Positions 7,418 through 48,075 of a stretch of DNA of 52,806 nt are shown in pieces. The stretch covers positions 10,653,565 to 10,706,370 of the forward strand of contig NC_057756.1 of the NCBI RefSeq assembly GCF_004010195.1, read 5' to 3'. The notes beneath the pieces were generated by a model, which saw only the letters and a program-made list of their open reading frames with translations, was not told the DNA's origin and did no database searches. Each line of letters opens with the position of its first letter. The stretch's first letter is position 1. The stretch is from Chiloscyllium plagiosum. Taxonomy: Eukaryota. Made by a program: the position numbers and the translations under genes.

Positions 7418-7530
7418 GCTTCCTGATAAGGGCTCCTGCCCAAAACGTCGGTTTTCCGGCTCCATGGATCCTGCCTGACCTACTGTGTTTTTCCAGCACC
7501 ACTCTAATCTTTACAAACTGAATAAAGTCA
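7418..7530 (+). mobile_element. Penelope-like element 3' end with decayed hammerhead motif
   Basis: CTGATAAGGGCTCCTGCCCAAAACGTCG, then CTGCCTGACCTACTGTGTTTTTCCAGCACCACTCTAATCT. Homologous to 47472-47566 and to the insertion at 14047-14568. Confidence 0.75.
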
Positions 7531-10446: not shown

Positions 10447-11046
10447 TGTAAGAAACAAACTCAAAATTTTAGACGAGACCAACAAATCTGGAAACAAGAC
10501 AATTTATTACGGACTTGCAAGTACGGGCTGCAACTGCACAAAGCAATTGAGCGAATTAGACTCGGGTTAGTTTACAATTATACCTTTGAGCTGAGTGAAG
10601 TCATCTCTCCAGACTCCTAATTGCCCAATCTCTCTTACTAGGCTATACAACTGCCCATCCTCGCTCCACCCTTGTTACTTCCCCTTCCCCATGTTGGCAA
10701 TCTTCCTCCTTGTTAGTGCTGACATTTTCATTATTTTGTCGATAGTACATCAAGATATAATTTAACATTTTGTATCAATACTGCTGGTACATTCCATTCT
10801 CCGTACACTTCATCAATTTTGTATCATTTTTGTACAGCTCAGGCATTTTAGTTATCTCAGTTTTTTTTGCTGAAAACTTATTTTAAAAAAGTTAACTTGA
10901 CGCCAGAATTAGTATTAAATTAACCATAATTAAAAGTAAACATGCGCTTCCCTAAGTACCTGCAGAGTTAATAGTTTTTCTGCTGGAACCCTTTTCTTCA
11001 TGTTTCTATATAGCTGCAAAAACAACATTTCCTTTCATTTCTAACA
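10447..11046 (-). repeat. ERV 3' LTR
   Basis: Direct repeat of 17672-18252. On the minus strand it starts TGTTAG right after the PPT and ends TTACA. AATAAA lies at 10503-10508 (minus). Confidence 0.93.
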
Positions 11047-11068
11047 ACTCCCCCATTTCTTTTATTTT
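11047..11068 (-). promoter_or_regulatory. Polypurine tract (PPT)
   Basis: Minus strand AAAATAAAAGAAATGGGGGAGT immediately precedes the LTR TG. Confidence 0.8.
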
Positions 11069-11137
11069 ACTATTTGTTGTTTTTGCAATTTCTATTCTCT
11101 GTCCTCTTTTCACCCTAAGGTGTAGAGGTTCACAACC

Positions 11138-12453
11138 TTACCGTTCCTGCTTTCTTAAGTCTGCCTCTTTTTCAAACTCTATGAGTAATCTATTACTCTC
11201 TCTTTCTTGTGTGTTTAATGTTGTCATGATCATCATTGATTGTTGACCTCCCAAGGACATTATCGACTTACTCATTACCCACTTTAAGATGTTAAATCCT
11301 ATAATTAGTCCTATTATTATTAGTAAGACATAAATGCCTAAATTAGCGAACCATTTTCCACAACTAGTCAGTTCCCAATCACCCCATTCCCATCTCTAAT
11401 CTTTTCGAAGTTTATTCTCAATTTCTTTTATATTCTTTATCTTTTTCTTTACTATTTCTGCCTTATCTTCTACTAGGGAAATGTCGTCTGCGATGAGGGT
11501 GCAACATTCCTTACCAATAGCTGCACAGGTTCCCCCTTTTTCGGCCAAGAGATAATCTAGAACGATTCGATTTTGTAAAGCTGTTAATCTGTGGCAATCA
11601 TTTCGGTGGTTATGGCCGATATTTGGGTCTGAGTTTCTTCCATTGCATCGGAAGTATTATTAATTAATTTCTCAAGGGCAGCCGCCAGTTTTTGTATCTC
11701 TCCCCCTGCCCTTGCAGTACTGAGGCTTGGGAATAAAGTCCACAACAGACGGTCAGAGACCTCTCGGGTCTTACGTTTTACTCCCTCTTCATTTCTCAGG
11801 TTGTGTTCATGTTTTCTAATCGGAGGTGAGGAATTATATAAGCAAGATAACAGCAGCCACTCCAGCTTTTCTTGTTTTGAGGCAATGACTTATCAATTTC
11901 AAAACATGCATTTCTTCCTATACATTCGGTTATTTGAATGTATTTCTCTCCGGGAATAAATGGATAGGCCTTCCAGCCGCATACCCAATATGTTCCATTC
12001 AATATTTGGGGAACGGTCTTGGCCGTGGCTGGTGGAGACATAAGATGATTTTCCTAATTGGAAGGGTTCAGCATTATTCTGATTACAAAAGCAGGTTGTA
12101 TTCACTGCTCCTTTTGGTGGGGTAATTATAAAGCCATCGATAATACCCTTGGTTCTCAGAGCTGGTCTAGGGAATCATACTGCAAAGTTATATTTACCCT
12201 TTTCATGACTCCACATTGTGTTATTTGTGCCTGAATCAAATTGTTGTACATCATACACTTCCTTTTTGGTAAGTGGTATTACCGAAGTGGGGATTCCAGA
12301 TTCACCATCGTGTGGGATCTCTGCACAGACCCAACAATTAGTATGTCATTTTTGTTCAGCATAATTTTGGCATAGTGTCGTAAAGTGATTTCTCCCGTTT
12401 CCTCGAATAGTTAGTATTACTATTGTTATAATATTATACCAATACCCACCCAT
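11138..12453 (-). pseudogene. env: Retroviral envelope, gamma-type, frameshifted
   Basis: Signal-like MGGYWYNIITIVILTI; CWVC at 12325-12336; furin site RKTR at 11764-11775; immunosuppressive domain LQNRIVLDYLLAEKGG; CX6CC (CAAIGKECC, 11501-11527); TM LGIYVLLIIIGLIIGF; TAA at 11138-11140. Confidence 0.93.
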
Positions 12454-14139
12454 TTCTAACAACTATCTGCCTTCCTCTCTATCTGTCTTATTTCTTTAGG
12501 CGCCAGGAAGAAGTGAATCACACAGCCTTACAATCAATAACAATATATCTGCAAATTTTAAAAGAGTATTTTGTCTCAATTTATTCTTTCTTTCTCAAAT
12601 TAATTTTCAGAGGATTTTCTGTAGAATGGGCGTGCCACTCCGCCCCTGGGGCGTTCACAGGACCTTTGACACGAGTGTGATGGCTCCACACTTTCTCAGC
12701 AGTCCGAACAGCTGTTTCGGTGGTTAGAAGAGTTAGGAACGGTCCCTCCCAACTTGGGTGTAGTTTGGTATCCTTCCAGGTTTTAATCAAGACCCAATCA
12801 CCTGGTCGTATACGGTGTACTGCAAACTCTAGTGGTGGTGTTTGTCCAAATAAGCCTTTGTTCCCAAGAACAGATAATGAAGAACCAAGTGCCATAATAT
12901 AATTTTTCAAAAATTTATCATTAAACTCGGCTGTGGGTACCTCTCCTTCCCCTCCTGGAAATGGTAGTCCAAACATCATTTCATAAGGGGGAAGACCAAT
13001 ATCGCGCATCGGGGCAGTTCGGACGCATAGTACAACAGGCAAACATTTGGTCCACGGCAATCGAGTCTCTATGACTAATTTAGATAATTGTTTTTTTCAA
13101 ATTCTGATTCATGCGTTCCACACGTCTGGAGGAGGTTGGGTGCCAAGGGGTGTGAAATTCCCAAGAGATTTCTAATCCTGCCATTATTCCTTGTAGGATA
13201 CTGGAAGGAAAATGGCTACCTTGATCTGAATCTATATTTTCCACTATTCCATATCTTGGAATAATATGTTCGAGAAGTGTTTTTACCACTCCTTTTGAGG
13301 TGGCTGATGACATTGGGAATGCTTCTACCCACCCTGTTAAATGGTCTACTAAGACCGACAGGTATTTCTGCTTTCCTACTGGGGGTAGTTCAGAGTAGTC
13401 TACTTGTATACTTTGGAAGGGTCTGACCCCTGGTTTCTTCCTCCTTTGGGGATTTCCCTTATTATTTTCTTATTAATCTTCTGCCACGTTGTACATCCTA
13501 TGCATATTTGTTTTGCTAATGTATAGATTCGCTTGCATCCATATTTCCTTAACTCAATGTCACACATAGCTTGGGAGCCCCAATGACTACCTTGGTGTAA
13601 AGTAGCTAGGATGCTTCTCATAACTGGTTTACTCACCAATTCCCTCCCATCTGGCAAGATCCATTTTCCTTCAGTTGTCTTATTGGCCCCTATTTCCTGA
13701 AATTCTTTTTCTTCTTCCTCCGTGTACACGGGGTTCACGGAAGAAGAATCAACTAGGGGCGTTAGTACTTGCTTTCTTTTTACTGTGTGTTTCATAGCTA
13801 CTTCTTTGGCTATTTCGTCTGCTCGCCTGTTTCCCTTTGCTTCTAGTGTGTGTCCATTCTGGTGTCCGGGTACATGGACTCTAGCTATCTCCCAGAGTAA
13901 TTTTAGGCTCACCAATACTTGTCCTATCAATTCTTCATGCGCTAATTCCTTTCCTCTACTATTGAATAGTACCCGTGCTTGCCACATCTTTCCAAAGATA
14001 TGAGCTACCCCGTAACCATACTTAGAGTCAGTGTAAATTGTTCCATGGAGAAAGTGAGGTCTGCAGACGCTGGAGATCAAAGCTGAAACTTTATTGCTGG
14101 AACAGCACAGCAGGTCAGGCAGCATCTAGGGAACAGAAG

Positions 14140-14175
14140 ATTCGACGTTTCGGGTACATGCCCTTCTTCAGGAAT
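14140..14175 (-). ncRNA. Minimal type I hammerhead ribozyme motif (one stem II mismatch)
   Basis: Minus strand ATTC-CTGAAGA-A-GGGC-ATGT-ACCC-GAAA-C-GTC-GAAT. Confidence 0.75.
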
Positions 14176-14482
14176 GAGCAGAGAGTGTTCAGCAGGAGAA
14201 GATAAAAGGTAGGGAGGAGGGACTTGGAGGAGGGGCGTTGGAAATGTGATAGGTGGAAAGAGGTAAAGGTGAGGATGATAGGTCGGAGTAGGATGGAGGC
14301 GGATCCCTCCAGCCTGGCACCGCCTTCCTGACCTGCAGTCTTTTTCTTGACCTCTCCGCCTCCACCCTACTCCGACCTATCACCCTCACCTTGTCCTCTT
14401 TCCACCTATCACATTTCCAACGCCCCTGCTCCAAATCCCTCCTCCCTACCTTTTATCTTCTCCTGCTGAACACTCTCTGCTC

Positions 14483-14518
14483 ATTCCTGAAGAAGGGCAT
14501 GTGCCCGAAACGTCGAAT
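14483..14518 (+). ncRNA. Minimal type I hammerhead ribozyme motif (Penelope-type)
   Basis: ATTC-CTGAAGA-A-GGGC-ATGT-GCCC-GAAA-C-GTC-GAAT: CUGANGA and GAAA cores, stem I ATTC/GAAT, stem II GGGC/GCCC, GUC cleavage triplet. Confidence 0.85.
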
Positions 14519-15464
14519 CTTCTGTTCCCTAGATGCTGCCTGACCTGCTGTGCTGTTCCAGCAATAAAGTAAATTGTTCCATCTCGATTCTGTAAGTATT
14601 TTAAAGCCTGGTTTAATGCGTGCAATTCACAAGACTGTACTGACCATGCGTTAGGTAGCCGGTCAGCATCCAATATTCGGTTCTCATTACCGTCCATTAC
14701 TGCATACCCATTGTATAATTTTCCTTCCACTACTCTTGATGACCCATCTATAAACAATCTGTCTCCTTCATGTAAAGGAATGTCTCTCAGGTCTTGCCTA
14801 ATCTGAGTCTGATAGTCTATAACATCTAAACAGTCATGTTCTAGTTCTCGTTTGTCTAGAGGTTCTCCCTTCCATAAGAAGGTAGCTGGGTTTAAACAGG
14901 TGTCTCTTGCTAATACAAGGTCATCTTTTTCCATCAGAATGGCTTCGTACTTTAAAATTCGCGAATCTGTTAGCCATCTTCCTGCCTTTTGGTTTAACAC
15001 ATTTCTGACTTGATGGGGGTATTAATTACTAGTGCTCCTGCAAAAGTGAGCTTCCGACTTTCTTCTTCCAATACTGGAGTCGCTGCTATTGCCTGTATAC
15101 ATTCAGGCCACCCTCTTGAAACTGGGTGCAAAACTTTAGACAGGAAGGCTATAGGCTGTCTATTTCCTCCTCCTTTCTGAGTAAACACTCCTAAGGCTGC
15201 TCCATCATTTACTGTTCCAAAAAGGCGTAATGGTTTCTCTAGTGAGGGAAGGGCCAAAACTGGAGCTTGTATTAAACTACGCTTTAACTCGTGTAATTTT
15301 TCTTTTTCTTCTTCTGTCCAGTGCAATTTTTCATGTTCGGACACAATCAATTTATAATATAGCCCCTTTGTTTTCTGAGCGTATGACTCTATCCATAATC
15401 TGCAATAGCCCATTAACACTAGAAACTTCTGTAATTCTCGTTTGGTTTCCTGGAGGGGCAACTC

Positions 15465-16642
15465 TAACTTCTTTTATATGTCTGGCCATGATTTGGTTAC
15501 GAACTGGACCTTCAAATGTCCCTGAGCTACTAGATCATTAGGATTTATTCCTGAATATTTTCTCGTGATTTATTTTAGTCTTTGCAAGAAAGCTGACGGG
15601 GCTTCATCTTTGTCTTGTCTTACTTCAAAAGTTTTCGTAAAATTTTGGGATCTAGACGCCGCCTCTCTGATTCCTAAGATAACCATCTCTCGAAAGTCCA
15701 TCATTTCTCCTCTATCATGTTCATCCATACCCTTCCATCATGGGTCTATATTGGGGAATTTGTTTTCAGCTGGTATTGCTCTCTCGCCCACAGGGTGTCT
15801 CTTTTCCCATTCCCTAAGCGCAGCTCTTCTAATCATACCCTTTTCTTCTCCTGAAAATAGTGTTCCCATAACACTCATCAGTTCACCCCATGTATACAAA
15901 TTCGGCCCCAGGAATTGATCCAACTGTTCTGACAATCCTACTGGATCTTCAATCAAACTTTTCATTTCTCTTTTAAAAGACTAACTTCACCACTACTCAG
16001 CGGTGCATTAACATATCCGAATTCGCCATTACCTACGGGTACTTCTCTAAGGGGATATATTTGTGCCGCTGCCCCGCCTATGTCCCCCTCTTCCCTTCTT
16101 TTTACTGCTGATTTTGTTCTAAGCGGACTCAAGGGAAGGTCTTCCCCCGGACCTTTTTTTCGGTTCTTGTACCGGAGGAGGTACTGTGGGAGAGGGAAAT
16201 GACGGGCCATTATTATCATTGTTATATGGGGGAGGGGGAAAACTTGACAAAGGATCCCAGCGGGAATCCTTTGTTTCCTCATTGCCTTCTTCCGTTTTTG
16301 TCTTTTTCAGCATTAATATTTTCGGGCTCCCTGGCCAAAAGGCGGCGTAGTCAGATTCTTTATATGAGCACTTATGTTTCCTATTTGCATATATATTTAA
16401 GTCTTGACATAACCAATCCTCGTCTGACCCATGTTTAGGCCAAAATACTTTTGGGGCTTTAATGCTTTCCTTAGTCCACTCAAAACAACAAAAAATTATC
16501 TTTTTTTGTCTTTTCCTAGCGTCTGAGGATTGTATTTCCAATCTCTTAGCATTTTTCCCAAAGGACTGTCCATTGGGATATAGTCTTCGGATGTCTCTCT
16601 CATGTCTCTTTCTACATCTAAATTGTTATTTTTATTTCTCAT
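15465..16642 (-). pseudogene. gag: Retroviral gag (MA + CA), frameshifted, NC missing
   Basis: MRNK...IPMDSPLGKMLRDWK...CCFEWT...FWPKHGSDEDWLCQ (HERV-I-like MA); WDPLSSFPPPPY late-domain-like motif; YPLREVP...VNAPL; EDPVGLSEQLDQFLGPNLYTWGEL; KSWPDI.KKL. Confidence 0.93.
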
Positions 16643-17649
16643 TTTAATACTCGGCCGATTTCTTTATATAATTTCAATTAACCTCTCTGATGTTCGGCGT
16701 TACCTTCTTCCACACCCACTTTAGGGTCCTAATCTCCGTGAGGGGGTTTCCCTTCTTAATAACTGGTCTAAGGCTGGGTGATCGAATCAGTTAGACACCT
16801 TACTTGTTAAATTAATCTAGCCAATTAAAGACCTTTATTCTCTATTTTTTAAGTTGCCAATTCCCCCGTACTTCTCGTATGGAACCGACCACCAAGGGAA
16901 TACTTAAAGGTCAATTTTCATACCTTGGTCTGTGCACAAATGTTACCTGGTAGAATGCGCGCCCCGTCCCTCGGCAATACCAGACAGCAAAAACCGTTGT
17001 CAATCTAGGTCAGCCAAAATTTACCTTTACCCGGGTCTCATGTACACAAGAGTAACCCAACCAAACCACCACGTCTTAGTGCCCTTCGCACCACAGCGAA
17101 ACAGCATGTAATGCTGCAAATCCCAGCCGTCCGTGCTTGTGGCAACCTGCCGCGTCTTAGTTCACCTTGTCCGTGGCAAAGACTATCAATAAATGTCGCT
17201 ACAAATCTAGATCGGTCTTGTGCACATAAGAGTTACCCGACAAACCACCACCTCTCAGCGCACCTAGAACCACGGCAAAACAACAAGTACTGCTGCAAAT
17301 CCCGGCTGCCAGCGAATGCGGGTCTTAAATCCATAAGAGTTACGCGACCAACCCGCTGTGTCTTAGTGTTCCTCGCTAAGCAAAGACTGACTACAAAACA
17401 AAATCCACTGCCTACCCCGGTCGCCTGGATAATACTTACTTAAGACCTTTTTCTTACCCGGGTCTTGTGCACAACAGTTACCTGACTGAACCCGCCATGT
17501 CGCGTCTGCTCCTCTTGTTTCCAGGGCCCCTCAGTCATGATCTCGCTCGCCCGAGCCATCGCGGCAATGGGTGAAAGTAGAGACCGCCGAAATCGGCGGG
17601 GTGCACCTTCTCTGATTTTTCCGAAATTGCCGAGCAACCGGAGCTTGGG

Positions 17650-17667
17650 ATCCCAGACGAGCCGCCA
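17650..17667 (-). promoter_or_regulatory. Primer-binding site, tRNA-Pro
   Basis: Minus strand TGGCGGCTCGTCTGGGAT matches the MLV-type Pro PBS TGGGGGCTCGTCCGGGAT at 16/18 positions and lies 4 nt from the 5' LTR end. Confidence 0.9.
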
Positions 17668-17671
17668 AATC

Positions 17672-18252
17672 TGCAAGGAACAATTCAATAAAATTTTAGA
17701 CGATACCAACAAATCTGGAAACAAGACAATTTATTACGGACTTGCAAGTACGGCTGCAACTGCACAAAGCAATTGAGTGAATTAGACTTGGGTTAGTTTA
17801 CAATTATACCTTTGAGCTGAGTGAGGTCATCTCTCCAGACTCCTAATTGCCCAATCTCTCTTACTGGGCTTTACAACTGTCCATCCTCGCTCCACCCTTG
17901 TTACTTCCCCTTCCCCATGTTGGCAACCTTCCTCCCTGTTAGTGCTGACATTTTCATTATTTTGTCGATAGTACATCAAGATATAATTTAACATTTTGTA
18001 TCAATACTGCTGGTACATTCCATTCTCCGTACACTTAATCAATTGTGTATCATTTTTGTACAGCTCAGGCATTTTAGTTATCTCAGTTTTTTTGCTGGAA
18101 ACTTATTTTAAAAAAGTTAACTTGACTCCAGAATTAGTATTTAATTAACCATAATTAAAATATACTCGTCCCTAAGTGCCTGCAGTGTTTATAGTTTTTC
18201 TGCTGGACCCCTTTTCTTCATGTTTTTATATATCTGCAAAAACAACACTTCC
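17672..18252 (-). repeat. ERV 5' LTR
   Basis: Roughly 94-95% identical by eye to 10447-11032. Ends TTGCA before the PBS. About 14 nt of its U3 start appear to be missing. Confidence 0.93.
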
Positions 18253-33834: not shown

Positions 33835-33950
33835 AATACTGCAGATGCTGGAATCCAAACTAGACAGGTAGGAGGCTGGAAGAACACAACACGCCAGGCA
33901 GCATCTGGAGGTGGAGAGTCGACATTTTGCGTGTAACCCTTCTTCAGTAA
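33835..33950 (-). mobile_element. Penelope-like 3' end with decayed hammerhead
   Basis: Minus strand CTGAAGAAGGGTTACACGCAAAATGTCGAC...GATGCTGCCTGGC...TTCCAGC...CCAGCATCTGCAG. Confidence 0.7.
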
Positions 33951-35319: not shown

Positions 35320-36160
35320 CACACTGGGTACACTTTCTTCCACACTGTGCCCTGGGGCTCACTCTCAACCGCGCTGACCCACTCTCCTCCCACTGAGTCC
35401 ACTCTTCTCTGCTCTGGGACCATTTTCCTTTGCGGTGAGCCCACTGTCCACCAGGCTGAGTTCACATTCTTTCACGGTGGGCACACTTTTCTTCACACTG
35501 GGCACACTCCTTTCTGTTCTGGGCCCATTCTCCTCCATGTTGAGTCCATTCTCCACTGCAAAGGCACCACTCTCCTCCCAAGCGGGCCCACTCTTTTCCG
35601 CGTTGGTCCCACTCTTCTTTGCAGAGGCCTCACTCTCCTCTGTGCTGGGCCCAGTCTCGTCTGCACTGGGCCCAGTCTCCTCCGCGCTGTGCCAACTCTC
35701 CTTCACGCTGGACCCATTCTCCTCCATAATAAATCCAGTCTGCTTCCCAGTGGGTACACTCTCCTCCCCACTGCGCCCTCTGTCCTCCACGTTGGGCCCA
35801 CTCTCCTCCGTGCTGGGCCGACTGTCCTCCATGTTAAGCCCACTCTACTTCACGGTGAGTCCACTCTGTTCCACGCTGGGCCCAATCCCCTCCACACTGG
35901 GCCTACTGTCCTCCATATTAAGCACACTTTACTTCATGGTGGGTCCACTCTATTCCGTGCTCGGCCCATTCTCTAACATGTTGTGCCCACTCTCCTTCAC
36001 CCTTGGTTCAATCTCCTACACATTAGGCTCACTTTCCTTCACGGTGGATCCACTGTCCTCCACGCTTGGCTTGTCTATGGTCAGCACCCTGGGCCTAGCT
36101 TAGTACAGCTTTAGGTCCATGTCCTGGATCCATTCACGGTCCATGTACTGGGCCCTCACC
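35320..36160. repeat. Degenerate 21-bp tandem repeat (GGGCCCACTCTCCTCCACGCT)n
   Basis: 7-aa periodicity in overlapping ORFs (GPTLLHA on plus; EESGPSA on minus). Confidence 0.9.
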
Positions 36161-45043: not shown

Positions 45044-45889
45044 AAAAAGTGCATTTTCCTCCACATCATTGATATATATTACAAACAGAAAAGGTGTCAG
45101 CACGAATCCGTGCAGAACACCACTACTTACTGATCTCCATTTCGAAAAGTGCCCTTGACTATTACTCACTGCCTTCTTTGATCAAGCCAGGTCTATATCT
45201 ATCACATCCCGGATCCTACAAAACTCTACCTTTGCTCCAGCTTGCCATACAGAACCTTATCAAATATCTTGTTTTAAGTCCGAGTTGATCGCATCAAACA
45301 TGAATCACATTTCACCACATTAAGTTTGGTCTGTCAATGTTTTAAATATAATTCACACAACGCACGAAGCAAAGTAGATGATATGATGAGATGTAACAAA
45401 CGCTGTTACACTTAGTATCTTCAGGTTGCAATGTAATAATATCGAATCAGAAATCTGGCCTCCCTTAGGGACAAAACCTCACCAGATGTGGGAATGTGTG
45501 CAGGACAGGGAATGGAGGTTTTAATGTGTCACTGAGTGGGTTTGTAAACCTCTGCAACAAGCGGCCATTTCTCCACCGATAATCCCATCTGCCAAATCTA
45601 TGTCCACTCAGTGAAGCTGTCCATATCTGCTTGCAGCCACTTCGGTCATTCCTCATATCTTTCCATCCCACCCACGATGAATATTGGCAGTGAATTGGAG
45701 ACATTACATTGAAACATAGAAGATAGGAGCAGGTGTAGGTCATTCCATCCCCCGAGTCTACTCCCCCACACAGTATGATCATGGCTGATCATCGAGCTCA
45801 GTTCCCTAATCCCACCCTACTCCCAATATCCCCTGGGCCTTCTGGATACAAAAGGAAATCTAGAAAATGTATCAGAGAGAGAGAAAGAG

Positions 45890-46142
45890 CCTGTGTATGA
45901 GAGATATAGTGAGATTGTGTATGAGAGAGATGGTGCGTGTTTGTGTGAGAGAGATAGTGAGATTGTGTATGAGAGAGATAATAGGATTGTGTATGAGAGA
46001 GAGATAGTGGGATTGTGTATGAGAGAGATAGTGGGATTGTGTATGACAGAGATAATGTAATTGTGTATGAGAGAGATAGTGGGGTTGTGTATGAGAGAGC
46101 TAGTGGAGTTCCATATGAGAGAGATAGTGGGATAGTGTATGA
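45890..46142. repeat. 24-bp minisatellite (GAGAGAGATAGTGGGATTGTGTAT)n
   Basis: About 10 units; 8-aa periodic ORFs. Confidence 0.93.
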
Positions 46143-46143
46143 A

Positions 46144-46181
46144 TCTCTTTGGAGTCGTGGATTCGAATCCCACCACTGCCA
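46144..46181 (+). pseudogene. 3' half of a tRNA-Leu (AAG/TAG type) gene
   Basis: TCTCTTTGGAGTCGTGGATTCGAATCCCACCACTGCCA vs vertebrate tRNA-Leu TCTCTTCGGAGGCGTGGGTTCGAATCCCACCGCTGCCA (34/38). D arm and anticodon are absent. Confidence 0.85.
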
Positions 46182-47089: not shown

Positions 47090-48075
47090 CCCCATCATCT
47101 ACAGTGACCGTTACCCCCGGGACACCCAGATCGACTCTTACTTCATTCCCAACAGCCCTCGCTCCACCCACTGCGTCCCAGCACCTCTCCCTACAAGAGC
47201 TGAAGGTGTAACACCTGCCCATTTCCCTTCTACCTCCCCAGTATCTAAAGGCTCAACCATTATTTTCTCAGGTGAAGCAGCGATTTACCTGCCCTTCCCA
47301 CAATCTAATCCAAAGCATTCACTTGTCACAATGTGCTATTGTCTACACTGGGTAAATGAAGGATAGACTGGGTGACTGCTTCACAGAACATCAACGTTCA
47401 GCCTCCAAAAAGACCCTGAGCTTCCAGTTGCCTTCGACTTTTACTCTCCACCTTTCAGGCTTTCTGCCTGTATTCCTGATGAAGGGCTTTTGCCCGAAAC
47501 GTCGATTTTACTGCTCCTCGGATGCTTCCTGAACTGCTGTGCTTTTCCAGCACCACTCTAATCTAGCCCATTCCAGTTTAAAACCCTACCCATTTCCCTG
47601 GCCAACATCTCTGTCTCAGGCATGCTGCAGTTTTCCAGTGAAGTTCAGCACAAACTGGAACAACAACATCTCATTTTCCATTTGGGGACCCTGCAGCCCT
47701 CCGGATTCAATATAGAGTTCAATAATTTTAGGGTCTGAACTCTCCCCTGTGCGATTCCCCACCCCTCACACTATGCCTTGGTATCACTTAGACTGCTATT
47801 ACATACTACCTATTGTTAGCCACTAGCAGTCTCCATTTACAGGTATTCAGCCTCCCAGCCAGATCATTATCCATTCCTTTATCCAACTGTTCTTCTCTCT
47901 CTTTGGGCTCTATTCCCATCTATCGTTTACGCCTTACCCCCTCCCCACTACCCTATCCCCTGCATTTAAAATGACATTTTCTCAGTTACCACCAGTTCTA
48001 AGGAAGGGTCATCCGCCCTGAAATGTTGACTCTGATTTATTTTCAAAGACGCTGTCAGATTTGCTGATCTTTTCA
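47090..48075 (+). mobile_element. Decayed Penelope-like element 3' part (GIY-YIG remnant) with a nested younger PLE end at ~47455-47566
   Basis: TGTCACAATGTGCTATTGTCTACACTGGGTAAA...AGACTGGGTGACTGCTTCACAGAACATC reads as C..C...YxG...RLGD.F.EH; KLEQQHLIFHLGTLQPSGFNIEF. Confidence 0.8.
47472..47507 (+). ncRNA. Minimal hammerhead ribozyme motif
   Basis: ATTC-CTGATGA-A-GGGC-TTTT-GCCC-GAAA-C-GTC-GATT. Catalytic cores are intact but stem I is weak. Confidence 0.75.

Follow-up and report, generated by a model that had tools for sequence, protein, structure and literature searches.

How two nearly identical pieces of a retroelement, facing in opposite directions and each carrying a hammerhead ribozyme motif, come to lie head to head at a single target site is the question raised by a short insert in the genome of Chiloscyllium plagiosum (NCBI RefSeq assembly GCF_004010195.1). 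The insert lies in a stretch of 52,806 nucleotides of contig NC_057756.1 (positions 10,653,565 to 10,706,370, forward strand), which we term 'the window' and to which all coordinates below refer. An earlier note on this DNA, made without database searches, proposed that the insert was either a clean record of the integration mechanism of Penelope-like elements (PLEs) or a small mobile palindromic unit, and that it might truncate or silence the RNA of the provirus around it. Our own reading, to which we assign a probability of roughly 0.75, is that the insert comprises two 5'-truncated 3' ends of a PLE, head to head within one 14-bp target-site duplication (TSD), and that they likely stem from a single, double-primed integration. 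Genome-wide counts refer to the whole C. plagiosum assembly (3.56 Gb), and comparisons with published systems refer to excerpts of the papers cited by PMC or preprint number.

The insert, its host and its parent element

The outline drawn in the earlier note holds up in a repeat search. The TSD is a direct repeat of 14 nt, 100% identical between its left copy (14033–14046) and its right copy (14569–14582, plus strand), and the inverted arms (14088–14303 and 14355–14570) are 216 nt each, 97% identical with exactly seven differences, and 51 nt apart. Comparison with the family redraws the parts inside this outline. The left arm is a 5'-truncated PLE 3' end of 257 nt on the minus strand (14047–14303), closely similar to a real family copy (96.5%) and to many genomic copies (98%), and it finishes in a long end that bears a one-sided 'tail' of 41 nt (14047–14087, minus strand). 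This tail is family sequence, and in ORF-bearing copies it runs on into the leader. The right arm is a second 5'-truncated 3' end, 265 nt on the plus strand (14304–14570) and 97–99% identical to family copies; its end is short, and as drawn to 14570 it shares 2 nt with the TSD (14569–14570). The 'spacer' (14304–14354, plus strand) is the further 5' reach of this right arm. It includes the last eight codons of the PLE ORF and their stop codon (14329–14331), so that the insert is non-coding, as had been claimed, except for 14305–14331. Head to head, the arms meet at a 4-nt microhomology (14300–14303), and this junction is unique in the genome. An AATAAA does follow each hammerhead motif (14563–14568 on the plus strand, with its mirror at 14090–14095), but it is confined to one subfamily: nine of 46 sampled relatives have it (ten were flagged, one of them because of its flank), and most, including a sister subfamily, have AACACA instead. 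The element ends are not followed by A-tails.

The host is a degraded endogenous retrovirus on the minus strand (10463–18252), with its pol in pieces. Its terminal repeats (10463–11032 and 17690–18252) are 94.4% alike, stop-free stretches between them reach at most 241 amino acids, and pol is interrupted in several frames. The insert sits in the RNase H, as the earlier note had recognized: the Pfam RNase_H profile is split, with positions 6–57 on one side (E = 0.032, below the curated cut-off) and 66–140 on the other (E = 2.8e-6), and both pieces are flanked on the minus strand by pieces of RT_RNaseH_2, Integrase_H2C2, rve and MLVIN_C. Nineteen sister proviral loci were fetched, and in the seven with both flanks alignable the site is empty (no extra bases, versus 536 in the window). 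The insertion is therefore later than the provirus, and is present in one of eight comparable proviral copies. The same order agrees, within a wide error, with the private changes, of which the arms have 5 over 2 × 206 nt and the terminal repeats more, at 25 over about 563 nt.

The PLE origin of the arms is supported by what lies directly upstream of the arm sequence in other copies. Against the genome, the insert proves to be an abundant young repeat, with 97–99% identity among the 40 scored of 3,128 candidates. Upstream of the arm sequence other copies encode a GIY-YIG endonuclease, and longer ones encode, in one frame, a reverse transcriptase (RT), a CX4CXXC linker and the GIY-YIG domain. 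RVT_1 is found in this ORF at E = 1.2e-8 (35.4 bits; cut-off 29.6), and the C-terminal GIY-YIG scores 22.9 and 23.1 bits in two copies (cut-off 22.6) and 21.5 in a third. Candidate places for the endonuclease number 163,028 genome-wide. By the linker motif in its translations, the parent appears to be a Neptune-type PLE, the Neptune clade being defined by a CX2-5CxxC linker between RT and EN (PMC8557442).

Endonuclease-positive (EN+) PLEs of this general form are well described. Their inverted, 5'-truncated copies with a 30–40-bp tail at one end are reported in PMC8557442, and head-to-head inverted pLTRs with tail and TSD had already been published (PMC3846280). The insert resembles the elements in these papers and in PMC2377424 in its head-to-head pLTRs, single TSD, tail at one end, pLTR hammerhead and heavy 5' truncation. 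Its own tail is 41 nt, versus about 33–37 nt in most relatives, and its pLTR likewise lies after a stop and before a start: the stop at 14329–14331 is upstream of the hammerhead, and the ATG, seen in ORF-bearing copies, lies 162 nt downstream of the hammerhead core. Unlike in these published elements, both arms here are short stubs without an ORF body, and the TSDs are 14–15 nt rather than the 8–10 nt of rotifer examples. The architecture of the insertion is thus already in the literature, and the window's insert is an ordinary example, one of thousands.

Origin of the two arms

An in vitro study of an anole PLE (PAc, the Poseidon of Anolis carolinensis) provides the closest mechanistic parallel. 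Both target strands are cleaved and extended, and the RT has two internal start sites, the spacing of which equals the tail (PMC11167929). With two start sites, every double-ended insertion should have a long end and a short end, and this is what we observe. The fetched loci, which were picked by similarity searches rather than at random, contained 43 head-to-head pairs; a TSD was found in 37 (one doubtful, 10 nt), and all 37 of these join a long end to a short one. The same holds for 38 of 46 mini fold-backs, the rest having one arm cut short (five), being unreadable (two) or joining two long ends (one). Where both ends and the TSD could be resolved (63 insertions), the TSD is 12–18 nt, and 14–15 nt in 40 cases; the long end is at 0 to +2, also in 40 of them, and most short ends lie between −33 and −37. 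The window's parent differs from PAc in its CX4CXXC linker, and in that its ATG comes after the tail rather than in stem II.

We propose that the endonuclease would cut the two strands about 14 nt apart. One end would then prime cDNA synthesis at the distal start site, giving the tail end, and the other would prime at the proximal site, about 35–41 nt upstream. Each cDNA would copy the pLTR of a sense RNA, reaching back into the end of the ORF, and both would stop early (at about 257 and 265 nt) and be joined by way of the 4-nt overlap. The suggestion in the earlier note of a 'record of the integration mechanism' is supported to this extent: the arms belong to the family, one end is long and the other short, the junction is unique with an overlap of 4 nt, and the insertion postdates the provirus. 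LINE-1 twin priming (PMC11702581) is alike in that both ends of a staggered break are primed, in its discrete 12–18-bp TSD and in the extra G at full-length 5' junctions. It is unlike in that the L1 cDNAs copy adjacent, non-overlapping parts of the RNA, whereas both arms here copy the same 3' region, without a poly(A) tail.

The alternative that survives best, although we consider it improbable, is that a single, self-priming cDNA folded back on itself and that the hairpin was then trimmed at the short-end site by the endonuclease or by repair. Self-priming has been proposed for this same architecture (PMC3846280). The window's 4-nt overlap could have acted as the snap-back primer, and the arms of such a molecule would be identical at birth. 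The window itself speaks against it. Its short-ended arm extends 51 nt beyond the tail arm on the 5' side. The spacer is thus absent from the tail-primed cDNA, just as the tail is absent from the short-primed one, and neither can have templated the other. A short-ended arm that is the longer one cannot result from snap-back of a tail-primed cDNA, and this polarity is found in four of ten listed junctions, the window included.

The arms of single insertions point the same way. They differ at 29 of 164 non-CpG sites that are polymorphic in the family versus 41 of 4,812 other sites, 20 times background, although the arms were part of the panel of alleles and the polymorphic sites may be prone to hypermutation. 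The comparison left out insertions under 93% identity and the site at −108, at which the query had selected. Differences at polymorphic sites occur in 13 of 32 insertions (the window differs at two), but the other 19 show none, as snap-back predicts, and the arms are more alike than random family copies would be (29 differences versus about 72 expected). Inspection by eye showed no allele to be consistently favoured in tail arms or in short arms. Junction overlaps are 4 nt in the window, and 0–2 nt or inserted bases in the other nine, so that annealing is no general rule. Six fold-back junctions hold short pieces of the hammerhead's own 5' part, as if a brief snap-back had preceded joining; some of these self-copied pieces lie in hot-spot junctions (discussed below), and snap-back therefore does occur. 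On balance, the geometry and the allelic differences between arms speak for two cDNAs rather than a single snap-back.

Two independent insertions, back to back at one site and at different times, are very unlikely. The family is huge, with its 163,028 candidate endonuclease places, and the arms do differ at seven sites. A single TSD brackets both arms, however, with no second TSD, and both arms are of one subfamily. This, together with the long–short pairing of 37/37 and 38/46 cases, largely refutes the idea.

We give still less credence to a non-autonomous palindromic unit that transposes whole. The earlier note had expected the central junction of such a unit to recur in the genome, and the 23-mer spanning the window's junction occurs once in 3.56 Gb. 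Eight other fold-backs of about 520 nt do exist, but their centres differ where readable, and arm lengths of head-to-head pairs span from about 115 to over 1,100 nt. Among much shorter fold-backs a single junction sequence is shared by about 15 of the 50 places listed, but even the mini fold-backs with this commonest junction carry the tail on one side or the other and come from different subfamilies. We also considered non-LTR retrozymes (bioRxiv 10.64898/2026.07.22.740005), which like the insert are non-coding, derived from PLE pLTRs and equipped with a type I hammerhead. These are tandem repeats with consecutive hammerheads on one strand, and the available text of the preprint describes tandem units without mention of palindromes. 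The insert is one inverted pair with one motif per strand, and we do not class it as a retrozyme.

A hot spot at the 5' edge of the hammerhead

Fold-back junctions in this family are far from evenly spread. In a search with exact patterns (reverse complement, a gap of up to 11, then the motif), 5,372 junctions were found genome-wide at the start of the hammerhead core, versus 195 just after the cleavage site (with a degenerate motif), 126 at a position further 3', and 12 and 2 at two positions further 5'; these counts are raw rather than normalised, the two 5' controls are subfamily-specific, and reversed controls all gave 0. Junctions at the cleavage site are thus roughly 28-fold fewer than at the 5' edge of the hammerhead. 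Since almost all copies include both of the 3' controls, the peak is not accounted for by copy number. The objects concerned are fold-back stubs of about 220 bp, from several subfamilies. That a rare allele in the query (at −108) had merely selected these tiny fold-backs was considered and rejected, since patterns free of the allele kept the hot spot.

ORF-bearing copies tend to begin at the same place. Of copies picked only by their ORF start, 14 extend to the core, and 11 of these start no more than 5 nt from it. Four begin exactly at the A equivalent to 14483, and all four are preceded by G (one ambiguously), where the element has C. A pattern that excludes most of the native upstream sequence matches 32,412 places. 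A hand count of the first 100 listed gave 19 native variants, six entries from three symmetric junctions, and 75 others in which the base before the A is C (38), G (21), A (8) or T (8). The share of G among the non-C bases exceeds the expected 27% (p about 1e-4 to 3e-4), although some of the excess may stem from an adjacent inverted fragment. In four family copies the 5' junction contains or adjoins a long array of short head-to-tail element repeats, which may have arisen by successive template jumps or have expanded afterwards.

In the window's right arm this A (14483) lies in an initiator-like motif (14481–14487, plus strand) that fits the initiator consensus. The motif also fits the splice branch-point consensus. 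Because of the junction pile-up, the starts of ORF-bearing copies and the excess G, we regard the A equivalent to 14483 as probably a capped RNA start. In Drosophila, transcription of Penelope begins within the upstream pLTR (PMC2377424), and in full-length L1 insertions an extra G marks copying of the cap (PMC11702581). The rival explanation is that the RT stalls at a splice branch point: besides the fit of the motif, an intron end in D. virilis maps to the 5' end of helix I (PMC4209133). A stall at the hammerhead structure itself seems unlikely, since a polymerase coming from the 3' side would already have opened stem I.

The window's arms run 120–180 nt past the hot spot, and their templates were therefore likely a 3' pLTR or a read-through RNA. 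Whether the insert and its relatives amount to a genome-scale record that settles how PLEs integrate is, in our judgement, evenly balanced. The record would read as follows. A capped sense RNA, starting at the first base of stem I, would be copied from both ends of a staggered cut of about 15 nt, with one cDNA per internal start site and often with different pLTR templates. Run-off at the cap would give the tens of thousands of stubs of about 130 nt, and read-through the longer arms; the cleavage site would have almost no part in defining template ends.

The family-wide counts bear on several matters: the template strand, sense or antisense (left open in PMC3846280), the origin of the inverted structures and tail (called undefined in PMC8557442), and the role of the hammerhead. 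The sharp hot spot, the excess G, the initiator-like motif and the low count at the cleavage site lead to testable predictions. Searches of an open-access library turned up no paper on the hot spot with its excess G or on the arm-allele test; either may be described in subscription papers, in Repbase notes or in Fig. S2 of PMC11167929, a figure that may present the 5' ends of genomic copies.

Contigs of another organism have joints at the same place. In one RNA run aligned to an ORF-start copy, 96% of the reads run into unrelated sequence, with no common start or end, and they are neutral as to the proposed RNA start. The window also has three older, diverged stubs of related Penelope ends (7420–7510, 33839–33950 and 47472–47564), the first and last of which also begin at the 5' edge of the hammerhead.

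Hammerhead motifs and transcripts of the insert

Of the two hammerheads claimed, one per strand, the plus-strand copy (14483–14518) is intact and the minus-strand copy (14140–14175) has lost one stem II pair through a substitution at 14155. Read directly, the plus motif comprises a 4-bp stem I, CUGAAGA, a bulged A, a 4-bp stem II and GAAA-CG-UC; C17 is 14514, after which cleavage is predicted. It has the features of minimal type I hammerheads, with CUGANGA, GAAA and UH in the core, a bulge after A9, G10.1-C11.1, palindromic 15.2–16.2 and a short helix I. Metazoan PLE hammerheads (PMC4209133) share this core, the bulge, G10.1-C11.1, an ACGU palindrome in place of stem III, and the 4-bp helix I, but their helix II is 7–8 bp rather than 4, and one of our copies has the broken stem II pair. 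The same paper reports paired minimal hammerheads on opposite strands in Schistosoma, 100–700 bp apart, and the two in the window are about 310 nt apart. Among 296 copies, gathered by a pattern that itself favours a conserved core, variation falls mainly at N7, loop II and one stem I base; stem II is near-invariant, and the common stem I variant is a mismatch that creates no new pair. The Rfam check proposed in the earlier note gave no hammerhead match at E up to 10 in 13900–14700 or in 14440–14582; the models expect a stem III. In 13900–14700 Rfam returned long-hairpin miRNA artefacts only, below their gathering scores.

In folding predictions the plus motif alone has pairing probabilities of 0.99–1.0 in stem II and 0.3–0.5 in stem I; in the whole insert, both fall to 0.0. 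The hammerheads appear to be passengers of the pLTR, and in any read-through RNA they are predicted to be sequestered by the hairpin. Single minimal motifs show no cleavage in vitro, and dimers little (PMC4209133); the anole hammerhead cleaved only with protein, and insertion did not need it (PMC11167929).

These results leave little of the idea that the insert is a cassette of ribozyme, poly(A) signal and dsRNA that truncates or silences proviral RNA, a weak inference that we judge highly improbable. Part of it stands: a 216-bp hairpin is predicted for transcripts in either direction (−455 kcal/mol), and in Drosophila a PLE pLTR can drive downstream transcription (PMC2377424). Against self-cleavage, the hammerhead stems of the folded insert are predicted to be unpaired, and monomeric minimal motifs are inactive. 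On either strand the antisense arm is transcribed ahead of the sense hammerhead, and one transcript cannot supply the dimer that minimal motifs need, since the two lie on opposite strands. Against polyadenylation, AATAAA is not conserved in sister subfamilies. The insert is present in only one of the eight comparable proviral copies, and this provirus is broken elsewhere. The insert is likely a dead, neutral stub, an ordinary object.

None of the reads of four sequencing runs (one large, and probably of DNA) fell on the proviral flanks; these runs are likely from other species or were filtered, and are uninformative here. In one run, T-rich loose ends occur in 59 reads immediately past the short end (14084), at an agreement of 0.57; the reads are likely from another species. 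Their ends could reflect polyadenylation there or an oligo-dT from the library.

Elsewhere in the window we noted three tandem arrays, at 1–1468 (26-nt units), 35379–36071 (21-nt units) and 45844–46166 (24-nt units). Two open frames, of 241 and 282 amino acids, contain the array of 21-nt units.
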